A DNA stretch of 64,000 nt from the NCBI GenBank assembly GCA_965217775.1, contig CBDCJH010000002.1, positions 5,152,001 to 5,216,000 of the forward strand, read 5' to 3'. Source of the DNA: Acidobacteriota bacterium (GTDB lineage Bacteria > Acidobacteriota > UBA6911 > RPQK01 > JAJDTT01). The notes under the pieces are model-generated. The model did no database searches. It had not been told where the DNA came from and saw nothing but the letters and a program-made list of their open reading frames with translations. A program made the position numbers and the translations under genes. Below, piece by piece: positions 13,175-63,416 of this stretch (positions within the stretch are counted from its first letter, which is position 1; each line of letters opens with the position of its first letter).

Positions 13175-13338
13175 TGCCGTCCCTTCTCCCGTTCCGCGCT
13201 ACGTATTTCCCAAGACTCGGAGGCGTTCACGCCGCTTCTGGCCATCGACCTTGACAGCCCCTGGAACCGATCTTACTAGAACAATGGCTAGCCAAGAAGG
13301 AACAAACGACAACGATTGATATGACGAGGAGGTCAACA

Positions 13339-13782
13339 ATGAGTCTCATCAGAGTAACGCCATTCGCAGGCATCAACGGATTGCACCGGTTGATGGATCA
13401 TTTCTGGCGCGACAGCCGTTTCCTGGCTCCCACCGACAGTGAGGAGGTCCAACCGGTGCGCCGGCCCATCTCGGACGTGTACGAGACCGGAGACAGCCTG
13501 GTCTTCACCATGGACCTGCCCGGATTCGACAAGAGCGAGATCGAGGTCAACGTCAACAACGGCTGTCTGGAAGTCAAGGGCGAGCGCAAGACCCAGGAGA
13601 AGGAGGATCGAACCTACCGCCAAGTCCAAAGGTGGCACGGGCGTTTCCAACGGTCCTTCCGGCTCCCCCGCGGACTGGATCGGGATAAGGTCTCGGCCGA
13701 ACTGAGGAACGGAGTCCTCAGCATCTCGATCCCCAAGCTGCAAGCGGCGAAACCCAAGCAGATCGCGGTCCGAGTCAGCTGA
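13339..13782 (+). CDS. Small heat shock protein Hsp20
   Basis: DVYET, DLPG, GRFQRSFRLP, AELRNGVLSISIPK; GAGGAGG RBS before ATG 13339; TTGACA at 13251. Confidence 0.93.
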   Translation: MSLIRVTPFAGINGLHRLMDHFWRDSRFLAPTDSEEVQPVRRPISDVYETGDSLVFTMDLPGFDKSEIEVNVNNGCLEVKGERKTQEKEDRTYRQVQRWHGRFQRSFRLPRGLDRDKVSAELRNGVLSISIPKLQAAKPKQIAVRVS

Positions 13783-13827: not shown

Positions 13828-13873
13828 GTCCACTTCGTTGAAAAACCTAGGGAGCAACCTGGGAGAGGCGACT

Positions 13874-15790
13874 GTGCGCCAGGCTAACTGGCACAAGATA
13901 GGCGGTGGAAGTCCGCCGAAACGAAGGACTAACCATCCACGTTTCTCCGCGAGCCGTGCGTGGGCACCCGTGAGGGTGTCGGCGAAGCGTCGGTAGCGGT
14001 GCGTATGGGCAGGCTATTGAGCATCGAAAGCTCCCTGATCGGAAGTGCCGAGGCTGTAGTCGCGGTCGAAGGCAACACCGGCTGGACCGCCCAGGTGAGG
14101 GACGGTCGGGCTCCGCGGTGTCAAAGAACCCAGGCACGTACGCAAATCTTGTTCCGGGACCTGGGAGGGCTTCATTTCACCCCGGGGGGTCGCCCCGGGG
14201 TCGCATGAGAAAGGAGTAACCCGAAACTCATGATGGACGGAACGAAGCAATCGGATTCATCCATAGTAGCGATGAAGCGGGCGAACAAAGAGGGGCGACC
14301 CTCGGCGGAGCCGGTGGAGCGAAGGGATGGAACCAAGGGGAATTCGGTGAGCCAAAGCACGCGCCGGACGCAGAGTCGGGGGAGCGTGTCCCAAGCGGTG
14401 GACCGGATACGGCGAGCGATCGCGAGAAACCCCAAGGAGCGACTGACCGCGCTGCTGCACCATATCACTGTGGAGGCCCTGCGCCGCGCCTACCTCGGAC
14501 TGAGGAAGGATGCTGCGCCGGGAATCGATGGGGTACGGTGGGAGGAGTACGGGGCGAAGCTGGAAGAGCGACTGCTGGACCTGCATCGCCGCGTGCACCG
14601 GGGCGCGTACCGAGCGCCTCCCGTCCGGCGGGTGAACATCCCCAAGCCGGATGGAAGGACACGACCGCTCGGCGTGGCCGCGCTGGAGGACAAGATCCTC
14701 CAGAAGGCAGTCGTGGACGAGCTCCTGACGCCGATTTACGAGGCGGAGTTTCTCGGGCTCAGCTACGGGTTCCGGCCCGGACGGAAGGCGCATGACGCGC
14801 TGGATGCACTGGCCTACGGGATCGAACGGCGGAAAGTCAACTGGATCGTGGACGCGGACATTCGGACGTTTTTCGATGCCATCGACCGGGACCGGCTGCT
14901 GCGGTTCGTGGAACGGCGGATCGGAGACCGGCGGGTGCTGCGGCTGCTGCGCAAGTGGCTGAACGCCGGCGTGATGGAAGAAGGGACCTGGTCGGACTCG
15001 GGGAGAGGGACGCCTCAGGGCGCCAACGTCTCGCCGGTCATGGCCAACGTGTACCTGCACTACGTGCTGGACCAATGGTTCCATCGGACGTGGCGTCCAC
15101 GAGTCCCCAATGGCGAAGCGATCCTGGTGCGATATGCGGACGACTTCGTGGCCGGATTCCAGAGACGGGCGGACGCGAAACGGTTTCTCCGAGACCTGGG
15201 GGAACGGTGCGCCGAGTTCGGGCTGGAACTGCACCCGGAAAAGACGCGACTGGTGGAGTTCGGACGATTTGCGGCAGCGGATCGGCGACGACGCGGGGAG
15301 CGGAAACCGGAGACGTTCGACTTTCTGGGGTTCACGCACTACTGTGCGAAGACCCGGAAGGGACGCTTCCGGCTGGGGCGGAAGCCAAGCGCGAAACGGA
15401 TGAACCGGACCCTGCAACGGTTGGGGGAGAGGCTGTGGAGACAACGGCACGCGGATCACTGGGAGGTCGGGAAATGGTTGAGCCGGGTCCTGAACGGCTG
15501 GCTGAACTATTTTGCGGTTCCGGGGAGTACGCGCTGGCTGCGAGGTTTCTGCTATCTGCTGCAACGGCGGTGGCTGCGAGCCTTGCGCCGCCGGTCTCAG
15601 CGCGACCGCTTCAGTTGGAGACGGTTGCGACGGATGACGGAATTGCTCTGGCCATCCGTGAAGATCCGTCACCCGTGGCCGGGGCAGCGGTTCCGCTGGC
15701 CGTCCACACCCAAGGTAGGAGCCGGATGCCTTAACGGGCACGTCCGGATCTGTGCGGGGGGCGGCAGGAAACTGCCGTTCCTACCGTGAC
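13874..15790 (+). mobile_element. Group II intron (full length, RT without endonuclease domain)
   Basis: 5' GTGCG at 13874; domain V GAGCCGGATGCC...GGCACGTCCGGATCTG and domain VI ending CCTACCGTGAC at 15790; EBS1 AGTCGC (14058-14063) is complementary to the 5' exon end GCGACT. Confidence 0.92.
14230..15789 (+). CDS. ltrA: Group II intron reverse transcriptase/maturase
   Basis: RT0 APGIDG, IPKPDGRTRPLG, SYGFRPGR, GTPQG, RYADDF, FDFLGF and domain X; no HNH domain. Confidence 0.95.
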   Translation: MMDGTKQSDSSIVAMKRANKEGRPSAEPVERRDGTKGNSVSQSTRRTQSRGSVSQAVDRIRRAIARNPKERLTALLHHITVEALRRAYLGLRKDAAPGIDGVRWEEYGAKLEERLLDLHRRVHRGAYRAPPVRRVNIPKPDGRTRPLGVAALEDKILQKAVVDELLTPIYEAEFLGLSYGFRPGRKAHDALDALAYGIERRKVNWIVDADIRTFFDAIDRDRLLRFVERRIGDRRVLRLLRKWLNAGVMEEGTWSDSGRGTPQGANVSPVMANVYLHYVLDQWFHRTWRPRVPNGEAILVRYADDFVAGFQRRADAKRFLRDLGERCAEFGLELHPEKTRLVEFGRFAAADRRRRGERKPETFDFLGFTHYCAKTRKGRFRLGRKPSAKRMNRTLQRLGERLWRQRHADHWEVGKWLSRVLNGWLNYFAVPGSTRWLRGFCYLLQRRWLRALRRRSQRDRFSWRRLRRMTELLWPSVKIRHPWPGQRFRWPSTPKVGAGCLNGHVRICAGGGRKLPFLP

Positions 15791-15901
15791 TTCTTGCCGC
15801 CCTCTTAATCGCCGACCCGAAACCGCCGGCTGCAAAGCCTGCGTTCCCACGCCCCTTTTTTCTGCGCGGATTGCACGGCTCCACAGTTGGTCGGGCCTAT
15901 C

Positions 15902-15945: not shown

Positions 15946-16018
15946 GCCGGGGTAGCTCAGTCGGTAGAGCAGGGGACTGAAAATCCCCGTGTCGGCGGTT
16001 CGATTCCGTCCCCCGGCA
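15946..16018 (+). tRNA. tRNA-Phe(GAA)
   Basis: Acceptor stem GCCGGGG/CCCCGGC, D arm AGCTCAGTCGGTAGAGC, anticodon arm GGGGA-CTGAAAA-TCCCC, T loop GGTTCGATTCC; followed by CCC rather than CCA. Confidence 0.97.
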
Positions 16019-16227
16019 CCCCTCTACGGAATCGCCTTCTTCCACTTCCTTCTACCGTCCGCAGACGGAGCATTCGGTCCCCTGCGCCCCCGTCAACCCG
16101 CAAAATCGCGAAGCGCATCTCGATGTGAAGGCGGCGCGCGCGCCTGCTGCTCGCGGAAGAGGCATCGAGCCGGCTCAGCAGAAAATAATCTCCATCCCGT
16201 CCAGTCGCCCCTTGCAGCATGATCTCG

Positions 16228-37584: not shown

Positions 37585-38718
37585 ATGGGAAATACCTACG
37601 GGGTCCTTCTGGTGGCCGGAGACTTGACCCACCAGGAGAATTACGGTGCGGCGTTCGGTCGAGACCCGCGTTGCCGCCTGGTGGCGGTGACCGACGAGCC
37701 TGGAGTCCCGGAACGCAGGGATCGTTTGAATCGATCTCTGGCCCGCCGCTTTGGAATTCCCTTCATCCCCGATCTGTCGGATGCCCTGAAGCGCAGTGAC
37801 GTCCACGTCGTCAGCGTCTGCGTGGAGTTCGAACGCCGCGCCCAGGTGGCCGCTCAATGCGCCCGAGCGGGCAAGCACGTCTACGTGGACAAACCGTTGA
37901 CCGTCTCCAACCGGGAGGCGTCCTCTCTGGTGTCCGAGATCCGGAGGGCCGGAGTACGAAGCCAGATGTTCAGCATGTTCCGAACCCCTTGGGCCCAACG
38001 GGCTCGGCGGCTAACCGACAGCGGCGCCCTGGGGGGACTCGTGAGCATGCACAGCGACCTTCTGTTCTCCAAGGGTCACACCGGGACCGCCGATCTGGAC
38101 CGTCCCCGCCAAGAACATTTCCCGCCCCGAAGGTTCACCTATATCGACTCGAAACGGGAACTCTTCACCATGGGGGTCTATTCCATCGGGATCATGCGTT
38201 GGCTCACAGGCCGTGCGGTGAAACGCGTCTATGCCCGAACCGCCAACTATTTCTTCCAGGAACACCAGAAGAACGACGTGGAAGATTTCGCGGCCCTGAC
38301 CATGGAGTTCGAAGGCGGACTGGTGGGAACCCTGAGCGGAGCGAGAATCGGCTGGCTGAGTCATCTGGCCGGTGGAGTTTCGGGGATCTTCCTGGCCGGG
38401 ACCCGGGGTTGCCGATTCGTCGACGGTGCCCGGCCCCGGTTCGAAGTTGCCTGCGATGCTCCTGCCTGGCGGCCCGGACCGCCGCATCCCGAAGATCCCA
38501 TGGGGTTCTGGAGGAGCAGCACCCGGGAGGCCGGCGGGGTCCACAAGTTCACATGGCGTACGGTCCCCGAGGCGACCCAGTCGGACGAGTCCTTCTTCAT
38601 CGACTGTATCGAGCAGAACCGCGAGAGCGACATGAGCGTCGCCGAGGCCGCCGAGGTGCTGAAGGTGCTCCTGGCCGGCTACGAGTCCGCAGCCACCGGC
38701 AAGGTGGTCTCCATTTAG
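37585..38718 (+). CDS. Gfo/Idh/MocA family oxidoreductase
   Basis: AGKHVYVDKPL, GALG, VEDFA, YESAATGKVV. Confidence 0.85.
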   Translation: MGNTYGVLLVAGDLTHQENYGAAFGRDPRCRLVAVTDEPGVPERRDRLNRSLARRFGIPFIPDLSDALKRSDVHVVSVCVEFERRAQVAAQCARAGKHVYVDKPLTVSNREASSLVSEIRRAGVRSQMFSMFRTPWAQRARRLTDSGALGGLVSMHSDLLFSKGHTGTADLDRPRQEHFPPRRFTYIDSKRELFTMGVYSIGIMRWLTGRAVKRVYARTANYFFQEHQKNDVEDFAALTMEFEGGLVGTLSGARIGWLSHLAGGVSGIFLAGTRGCRFVDGARPRFEVACDAPAWRPGPPHPEDPMGFWRSSTREAGGVHKFTWRTVPEATQSDESFFIDCIEQNRESDMSVAEAAEVLKVLLAGYESAATGKVVSI

Positions 38719-38746
38719 GAGGGGCGACAAGAAAGTCGCCGCTCCT
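38716..38746. repeat. REP-like palindrome between convergent genes
   Basis: AGGAGGGGCGAC-AAGAAA-GTCGCCGCTCCT; its reverse strand matches the reconstructed intron target. Confidence 0.7.
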
Positions 38747-42258: not shown

Positions 42259-42369
42259 CAGGAGGGGGGACATTCTTGTCCCCCTCTTCATCCTTGTGCC
42301 CTTCTTTAATTATTGTCCCCACTCTTCATCGCGGACCCGGAATCGGGGGTTGCAAACCCCCGCTCCTAC
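42259..42369. repeat. Composite REP doublet (BIME/REPIN-like)
   Basis: GGAGGGGGGACATTCTTGTCCCCCTCTTCATC ... CGGGGGTTGCAAACCCCCGCTCCTAC; similar to the intron flanks and to 63379-63416. Confidence 0.7.
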
Positions 42370-63378: not shown

Positions 63379-63416
63379 GTAGGAGGGGCGACATTCCTGT
63401 CCCCCCCTCTTCATCC
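63379..63416 (+). repeat. REP-like palindrome abutting MITE copy 2
   Basis: GTAGGAGGGGCGACATTCCTGTCCCCCCCTCTTCATCC, similar to 42259-42292. Confidence 0.65.

Follow-up and report, generated by a model that had tools for sequence, protein, structure and literature searches.

The DNA described here is a 64,000-nucleotide (nt) window from a metagenome-assembled genome (MAG) of a sponge-associated Acidobacteriota bacterium, and its subject is a group II intron that lies between an Hsp20-family gene and a tRNA-Phe gene, inside a short repeat resembling repetitive extragenic palindromes (REPs). The REP and the intron lie 91 nt beyond the stop of the Hsp20-family gene. Public runs that contain the stretch include sponge metatranscriptomes. 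The features of the locus are given below by window position, with exon-binding sites (EBS) in the intron, intron-binding sites (IBS) in the exons and intron domains abbreviated as D1 to D6.

13321..13782, + strand: Hsp20-family gene, upstream and on the intron's strand (PF00011 at 4.7e-26)
13861..13866, + strand: IBS2 (GGGAGA) in the 5' exon, in the 5' flank of the REP stem; pairs with EBS2 GCTCCC, with covariation
13868..13873, + strand: IBS1 (GCGACT), the 5' arm of the REP palindrome and its first loop T; 6 bp with EBS1 AGTCGC
13874..15790, + strand: complete group II intron, 1917 nt, GTGCG...CCGTGAC; placed by RF02005, RF00029, an empty paralogous site and a contig that skips it exactly
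14030..14035, + strand: EBS2 (GCTCCC), in a part of D1 that the Rfam alignment leaves unpaired, with covariation
14058..14063, + strand: EBS1 (AGTCGC), in a terminal loop of D1, unpaired in the Rfam alignment and covarying with the 5' exon
14123, + strand: EBS3 (A); pairs with the first base of the 3' exon, T15791
14230..15789, + strand: reverse transcriptase (RT)/maturase of 519 aa without an endonuclease domain (RVT_1 1.8e-35; TIGR04416 352.6 bits)
15718..15751, + strand: D5, from the RF00029 alignment and fold
15754..15787, + strand: D6 with a bulged UA (fold -40 kcal/mol, z -3.9); predicted branch A at 15783
15791..15801, + strand: start of the 3' exon, TTCTTGCCGCC, the remaining REP loop and the 3' arm; T15791 is IBS3
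15946..16020, + strand: tRNA-Phe (GAA), downstream and on the intron's strand

Intron boundaries and encoded protein

An Rfam search of the window matched the group-II-D1D4-6 family (RF02005) with 161.3 bits at 13908-14130, covering the entire model, and the D5/D6 family (RF00029) with 37.5 bits (E 3e-5) at 15717-15790. As the 5' GTGCG stands at 13874 and the RF00029 match runs to 15790, where the 3' end reads GAC, the intron occupies 13874-15790 and has GT..AC ends. A sequence-only reading of the window had recognised the element as a group II intron but placed it at 13859-15850, which is too wide since that interval takes in exon flanks. The predicted D5/D6 fold was not equalled by any of 200 shuffles; the bulged UA of D6 lies 7 nt before the 3' end, and the loop of D5 folds either as UAAC closed by a U-G pair or as a 6-nt loop. 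By sequence and predicted fold, the element has the 5' GUGYG, the D1-D4 fold, D5, a D6 with bulged A and the 3' AY of a bacterial group II intron.

The boundaries are confirmed by two independent checks. Contig C1 (144 kb) of the same assembly carries a second hsp20-to-tRNA-Phe copy at 129327-130123, a paralogous or allelic region that is 93% identical (743/800) and intron-less, with its junction at exactly ...GGCGACT/TTCTTGTCGCC... (here and below, the slash marks the insertion point). In public run X4, of unspecified library kind, one contig links 13873 exactly to 15791, omitting the 1917 nt. The palindrome around the window intron reads GGGAGNGGCGACT/TTCTTGYCGCC, with the insertion at the loop edge. 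The host site is accordingly a hairpin GGCGAC-TTTCTT-GYCGCC, interrupted after the first loop T. The IBS2 of the empty C1 site is poor (CTGGCA instead of GGGAGA), which fits the fact that this site is empty.

The open reading frame (ORF) for the intron-encoded protein (IEP) is located in D4. Its match to the NCBIfam group II RT/maturase profile (TIGR04416) exceeds the cut-off of 300, and domain profile searches of the 519 residues gave RVT_1 and TIGR04416 and no endonuclease domain, so that the intron was rightly called endonuclease-less in the sequence-only reading. The best matches among solved structures include the GsI-IIC RT (6ar1, 1.5e-44). The frame extends across D5 and D6, with its stop 1 nt short of the 3' splice site, so that catalytic RNA domains encode the final ~25 residues. 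The tblastn matches of the IEP in relatives likewise extend to residue 519.

Recognition of the insertion site

In the proposed mechanism the intron RNA would read about 13 nt of target by base pairing. EBS2 (GCUCCC) would pair with GGGAGN directly 5' of the REP stem, EBS1 (AGUCGC) with GCGACU, which is the 5' stem arm and the first loop base, and EBS3 (A) with U, the first base of the 3' exon. The position of EBS1 given in the sequence-only reading is correct and agrees both with the unpaired terminal loop of the Rfam alignment and with the covariation described below.

Six EBS1 variants were found across the genus, each matching its own exons. The form AGTCGC, present in the majority of copies, pairs with GCGACT, GCGGCT, GCGATT or GTGACT, while AGTCCC in one copy of the sister genome G003 pairs with GGGACT; the copies of G006 have AATCGC with GCGATT or GTGATT, and AACCCC with GGGGTT. 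A lineage in G005 has EBS GGATGC and CATGCA at the exon TGCATGG-GCATCT, and an ORF-less element, m3223, has EBS GGGTGC and CCTACG and an EBS3 of G at ACGTAGG-G-GCACCC/C. EBS2 occurs in three states, each matched by IBS2, the variants being IBS2 CGTAGG with EBS2 CCTACG and IBS2 TGCATG with EBS2 CATGCA. The EBS3 base, which follows GGTGTC, pairs with exon position +1 in nine of ten aligned introns, and all four types of pair are present (A-T, G-C, T-A and C-G). Five rows were left out of this comparison: L071, L085 and L086 as artefacts from insertion or truncation, and L079 and L087 as too short.

With an EBS1 of 6 bp, an EBS2 of 5-7 bp and compensatory changes in both, recognition is of the IIB type, through EBS2, EBS1 and EBS3, rather than of the IIC type with its short EBS1 and upstream hairpin. 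Point changes in the EBS shift lineages among REP subfamilies. As shown by the covariation, one ORF-less lineage has changed all three EBS and now resides in a different REP family, which is tagged with GTAG.

Copies of the intron in the genome

Searching the assembly (G000) at the DNA level gave 21 matches belonging to 16 elements: ten full-length copies with 98-100% identity, one internally deleted copy, four ORF-less copies of ~643 nt, one of them with a 112-nt insert, and one fragment of 67 nt. The 519-aa frame is intact in nine of the ten full-length copies, the tenth (c2725) having a 1-nt deletion. The 5' exon fits the element's own EBS in 16/16 cases, and the 3' half of the palindrome is present in 14 of the 15 elements that have a 3' junction. 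Hairpins were scored for the 14 elements with both junctions, omitting the internally deleted copy (C2:3645109) and the 67-nt fragment (3009691); a stem of at least 5 bp was found at 13 of them, with the insertion at the end of the 5' arm or one base beyond. The internally deleted copy has REP halves on either side. In the sister genome G003 (= G001), 10/10 copies lie within stems of 6-8 bp. Other copies at unrelated sites, which the sequence-only reading had named as a refutation, are thus not the pattern, and the idea of an abundant repeat family as a multi-copy target is borne out.

The sole exception among the 14 scored elements is c3929 (G000:C2:3929720-3931636, - strand, locus L004), where the stem is 3 bp, the 5' sequence is AGGAGATGCGGCT without a 3' arm, and EBS3 (A) stands opposite a G at +1. 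This copy lies in sense within a stop-to-stop, coding-like frame of 678 nt. As the GC content at third codon positions (GC3) of this frame is 0.77 and the exon halves have protein-like translations, the copy is placed inside a gene, and it may be a gene-interrupting intron or an insertion in a pseudogene; a Pfam search gave no family for either exon half. The description of the repeats as a safe harbour consequently holds in part. Most sites look intergenic, with no coding-like ORF across 9 of the 14 insertion sites, but c3929 is in such an ORF, and a few REP sites overlap the ends of stop-to-stop ORFs.

It is unlikely that the copies arose by segmental duplication, because the sequences that flank them past the REP are unrelated, except for the pair C2:4405415 and C2:4406621.

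The REP families

The main REP unit is 28 bp long (tGGGAGCGGCGACTTTCTTGTCGCCGAc) and often forms tandem arrays with a 28-bp period. Its exact core, GGCGRCTTTCTTGYCGCC, has 109 sites in the genome, and the stems GGCGGC, GGGGAC and GGCGAT define subfamilies. Judged by sequence, the unit qualifies as a REP: it is a short, GC-rich, imperfect palindrome with more than 100 copies, arranged in arrays and mostly extragenic. The window has three matches to the core at three or fewer mismatches, compared with a shuffle mean of 0.34 (0/100 shuffles reach three); among the REP units in the window are the following.

38716..38746, - strand: intact, unoccupied REP unit (GGAGCGGCGACTTTCTTGTCGCCCCTCC), from the motif search
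42266..42283, + strand: REP subfamily variant GGGGACATTCTTGTCCCC, 3 mismatches to the core
63387..63404, + strand: REP-like variant GGCGACATTCCTGTCCCC, 3 mismatches to the core

The first of these had been named as the intact counterpart of the occupied palindrome, and its minus strand does read as that unit. As single-stranded DNA (ssDNA) it is predicted to form a hairpin, with energies of -10.4 kcal/mol (minus strand) and -13 kcal/mol (plus strand) and 0/200 shuffles as good. The alignment of the intron's 3' flank with 42322-42369, which had been read as a REP doublet, fared less well: the likeness is visible by eye, but this copy was missed by blastn-short at E<=1, whose hits with the 3' flank were the C1 paralog, a single match of 53 nt at 87% and a few of 24-30 nt. 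This stretch is a separate, low-copy repeat module outside the REP. The module covers window positions 15801-15862 and about 42322-42369 and is also found at C2:3717831, 5423091 and others, a handful of copies by BLAST; it consists of CCTCTTNATCGCCGACCCGNAACCG and then a hairpin with a GCAA loop, the stem of which shows compensatory changes, and it trails some REP units.

The main REP family does not carry a GTAG tag. A second family, GTAGGGGCACCC-CTTGT-GGGTGCCC, has 39 copies, is GTAG-tagged and hosts m3223 in G000 as well as a similar ORF-less element in G008. Its units often lie within a longer palindrome, GGATCGCGAC...GCTGTCGC (G000:C2:48119, 2239057, 3670955 and others). A tag of GTAG or CGTC is typical of REPs linked to REP-associated tyrosine transposases (RAYTs; PMC3733652). 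Three weak Y1_Tnp matches were found in the genome, at 39, 31 and 22 bits. The 39-bit match is a 233-aa ORF with the HUH-like motif NHVHVLF (L054 1141-1842; G000:C2:5635244-5635945) and is a candidate RAYT; it is flanked by GC-rich palindromes, with a REP-subfamily unit, GGGGACATCCCTGTCCCC, 85 nt upstream.

Sequence or hairpin

The association with REPs could follow from base pairing alone or could require the palindrome as a structure. In a genome-wide count of free sites matching the IBS sequence GGAGNGGCGRCT, 104/126 lie in palindromes, and 99/103 when T is required at +1, so that 83-96% of the free IBS-sequence sites are inside REP palindromes; 12 such sites are occupied. With a relaxed motif the counts are 371/482 and, with T at +1, 348/374. 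As IBS sites are mostly in palindromes, 13 insertions out of 14 in palindromes are to be expected, and the sequence requirement by itself predicts the REP association. Since the IBS sequence is almost confined to REP units, each suitably oriented REP is a potential landing site, and the intron has multiplied in this way. Recognition of the hairpin only was set aside, as the availability of IBS sites already accounts for the palindrome share.

A weaker form of the structural idea is that the DNA hairpin, formed on the single-stranded lagging-strand template, is an additional requirement of the intron or of its IEP, with insertion at the junction of 5' arm and loop in a partly IIC-like or attC-like manner. 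Alternatively, the exon hairpin could aid splicing by uniting the exons and could mask IBS1 after ligation. We consider such assistance unlikely. It would explain why the insertion point in each of two unrelated REP families, GGCGAC(T)/TTCTT-GTCGCC and GGGGCACCC/CTTGT-GGGTGCCC, falls where the 5' arm ends, but the agreement of two families in one position is a coincidence of about 1 in 10. The hairpins are stable as ssDNA (-10 to -13 kcal/mol, 0/200 shuffles as good), and yet a folded hairpin would mask IBS1. The restriction to the lagging-template orientation also fits, and a paper on IIB introns adjacent to attC sites speculates on such a role, stating that none has been reported for IIB (PMC7923331). 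Against this stand the insertions without a palindrome: c3929 has the IBS sequence with a stem of 3, the G005 lineage with changed EBS occupies a non-palindromic multi-copy site, and ten relatives at 42-57% IEP identity have no palindrome, as judged by eye. The palindrome share of the insertions also equals that of the available IBS sites.

If structure did matter, REP hairpins on the lagging template could form a fourth class of target, in addition to unique homing sites, terminators and attC. Intron and repeats would then co-evolve, and lineages would hop by EBS mutations among REP subfamilies and as far as the unrelated GTAG-tagged family, always into a structurally favoured 5' arm/loop junction. 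The favouring could come from fork stalling or ssDNA exposure at the hairpin, from strand invasion seeded by the EBS2-IBS2 pairing, or from closure of the exon hairpin after splicing, which would prevent re-insertion. This extension is doubtful, and base pairing with a repeated sequence is the reading we retain.

Replication strand and mobility

The cumulative GC skew of the genome has its minimum at ~5.0 Mb and its maximum at ~1.68 Mb, and dnaA is at 5,011,059. Fifteen of the 16 elements in G000 have a sense strand that equals the leading-strand sequence, and are thus on the lagging-strand template. Free REP motifs are unbiased by strand (34/40, 74/63 and 56/50). The same orientation is found elsewhere, in 10/10 elements of G003, 8/8 of G007, 12/13 of G006, 4/4 of G005 and 2/2 of G004, which makes 51/53 in all six genomes. 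A bias towards the lagging-strand template has been described for endonuclease-less introns (PMC4424553, PMC8919778), and the bias seen here fits replication-fork-primed retrohoming. Given this bias, the intron would most likely integrate at replication forks, as other endonuclease-less introns do, reverse-splicing into the lagging-strand template and using the nascent lagging strand as its primer. The ORF-less derivatives of ~643 nt would probably be mobilised in trans by the IEP of the full-length copies.

The identity of 98-100% among copies, the nine intact frames and the presence of an intron-less form of the window site in a public run suggest that the intron was recently active. It could instead be argued that a single burst in the past left the copies as relics, now inactive, and that their REP association is historical. 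The damaged members of the set, namely the frameshifted full-length copy, the internally deleted copy, the 67-nt fragment and the four copies without ORF, would be expected under such a scenario, as would a D5 with a non-canonical G-A opposite the triad G. The same D5 is retained, however, in all relatives that still score with RF00029, and the sets of copies vary among genomes of the genus. Together with the intact frames, the high identity and the intron-less form, this makes a set of relics improbable and favours a recently active intron.

Several contigs from public runs bear on the forms of the intron. In runs X1 and X4, contigs omit 1422 nt within the intron, from 14290 to 15713, which appears to be a further ORF-less deletion form distinct from the 643-nt copies of the genome. 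A low-depth (5.3) contig from run X9, an RNA library, has a variant 3' end of the intron (...CCCTACCGCGA) at window position 15763 joined back to 13873; this could reflect circularised intron RNA, sequence arranged in tandem or a misassembly. Another joint in run X9, from 13862 to 15791 with other letters between, was rejected as a splicing product and matches the C1-type empty locus.

Distribution within and beyond the genus

Among the genomes searched, 18 of them from outside the genus, repeat and intron both appear confined to one genus. The exact REP pattern occurs in 7/8 other genomes of the genus and in 0/18 of other genera, and a reversed control pattern occurs nowhere; the 5' ribozyme part of the intron gives the same counts, 7/8 and 0/18. 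The two sets differ in their members. In G002 the REP pattern is matched exactly at 13 sites and the intron is not matched at all, and because of this the repeat is seen to exist independently of the intron. G006 has 13 intron matches but lacks the exact REP form, its introns sitting with other EBS1 in variant palindromes.

The shared restriction to the genus is what one would see if the REP-like units were by-products spread by the intron as copied exon flanks and no family in their own right. This is very improbable, as it is contradicted by the repeats without intron in G002, by the introns without exact repeat in G006 and by the hundreds of free units in 28-bp tandem arrays. Retrohoming, moreover, does not copy exon sequence.

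Relatives with 42-57% IEP identity have the same Rfam type and occupy unrelated sites. The sister lineage in G005 has three copies with identical flanks (L032-L034; L076, L084, L092) directly after an ATG, near the start of a repeated coding-like sequence; read from its translation, the host would be the N-terminus of an integrase-type protein and hence another multi-copy mobile element. At G003:C1:1402634-1406597 (L069, L071) one intron copy is split at about 54-61 by ~2 kb of inserted DNA.

A repeat family as the probable homing site

Taken together, the sequence data point, with a probability of about 85%, to an endonuclease-less, IIB-like and recently active intron whose homing site, as it happens, forms part of a REP-like palindrome of 28 bp that is specific to the genus. 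Several points weigh against this interpretation. The RF00029 score of 37.5 is slightly below the gathering score of 40, and the predicted D5 fold has a G-A mismatch in the middle of the AGC triad. The insertions in both REP families share one structural position, where the 5' arm ends, and homing by sequence alone does not predict this. In G003-G007 the origin was taken as dnaA and the terminus was assumed to lie opposite rather than measured, and as insertions may have been inherited across genomes, the 51/53 elements are not 53 independent events. In two metatranscriptome runs the intron is covered by RNA-library contigs, but these give evidence of neither transcription nor exon ligation for the window copy. 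Contamination of this MAG is estimated at 7.5%, and this figure together with the second hsp20-to-tRNA-Phe copy suggests that C1 is a plasmid-borne duplicate or stems from a second strain in the bin.

Even so, the finding is real and well supported, and it clearly documents how lineages were retargeted from one repeat family to another. It would represent an ordinary mechanism, EBS/IBS homing primed at the fork, in a niche that is unusual and has apparently not been described, that of a REP family. Full-text literature searches, whose coverage largely excludes subscription journals, returned no paper in which a group II intron homes to REPs. The REP palindromes would give the intron many mostly harmless landing sites in this genome. 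A sequence-specific retroelement would thereby evade the one-site limit of homing by adopting a repeat while keeping recognition by base pairs, the outcome being IIC-like copy numbers (10-16 per genome here) combined with IIB-like specificity. The EBS variants matched to REP subfamilies constitute a natural data set on the evolution of target specificity, the principle behind targetrons, and the strong strand bias across six genomes, set against unbiased targets, lends clean genomic support to fork-dependent integration of endonuclease-less introns.

Comparison with known systems

The features fit the published description of the IIB-like, endonuclease-less classes E and F. Introns of classes IIE and IIF are likewise small and IIB-like, with an endonuclease-less IEP, apparent EBS1 and EBS2 in D1 and complementary exon sites, and the ORF-less form of 643 nt is within the range of 450-700 nt given for them (PMC3753933). 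The same paper puts forward a role for EBS2 in homing and not in splicing, in agreement with the covariation of EBS2 seen here, and its available text mentions no REP target (PMC3753933). Diagnostic of these classes are also a D5 loop of 5 nt, whose counterpart here is ambiguous in the predicted fold, an alpha' in a terminal loop of D1d3 and an IEP that groups with class E or F references. Many near-identical copies and ORF-less derivatives in one genome are also known from the introns of Thermosynechococcus elongatus (PMC2882425). An intron widespread on enterobacterial plasmids has 52.6% identity and shares the RF02005 type.

Class IIC introns share an endonuclease-less IEP, many intergenic sites set by a DNA palindrome and the lagging-template bias (PMC4424553, PMC8919778), and the GsI-IIC RT is among the best structure matches of the IEP. 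They differ in having an EBS1 of 3-4 bp and no EBS2 and in inserting after the hairpin (PMC7923331, PMC3753933), whereas the present intron has a 6-bp EBS1, covarying EBS2 and EBS3 and an insertion point within the hairpin, on the edge of the loop. What the sequence-only reading drew as a parallel with class C is therefore ecological only. As an assignment, class C was ruled out by the 6-bp EBS1, the 5-7-bp EBS2 with its compensatory changes and the insertion inside the hairpin.

Class D was ruled out by Rfam type and by an IEP identity of 36%: the pSymA intron L059, which we take to be RmInt1 from our reading of the record and not from an annotation, scores 113.7 bits with RF01999, and nothing in it reaches the gathering score of RF02005. 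RmInt1 of Sinorhizobium meliloti, which prefers the lagging-strand template, differs from the present intron also in its target, an insertion sequence (IS) transposase gene and not a 28-bp extragenic palindrome. The two are alike as endonuclease-less IIB-type introns that use EBS1, EBS2 and EBS3 for homing into a repeated sequence, ISRm2011-2 in the case of RmInt1 (PMC1802570, PMC4615759).

A 2015 review lists three target specificities of bacterial introns, namely homing sites, terminators and attC (PMC4424553), and a group II intron of Pseudomonas putida KT2440 is associated with REPs in only two of nine copies (PMC1525189). Closest in their choice of target are the REP-targeting ISs (IS1397, ISPpu9, ISPpu10, ISPa11 and others), which likewise use REPs as specific and harmless multi-copy sites (PMC1525189; bioRxiv 10.1101/2025.01.17.633520). 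These are DNA transposons whose transposition machinery recognises the REP, in contrast to the RNA-DNA pairing of a ribozyme proposed here, by which a retroelement would join the short list of mobile elements that parasitise REPs.

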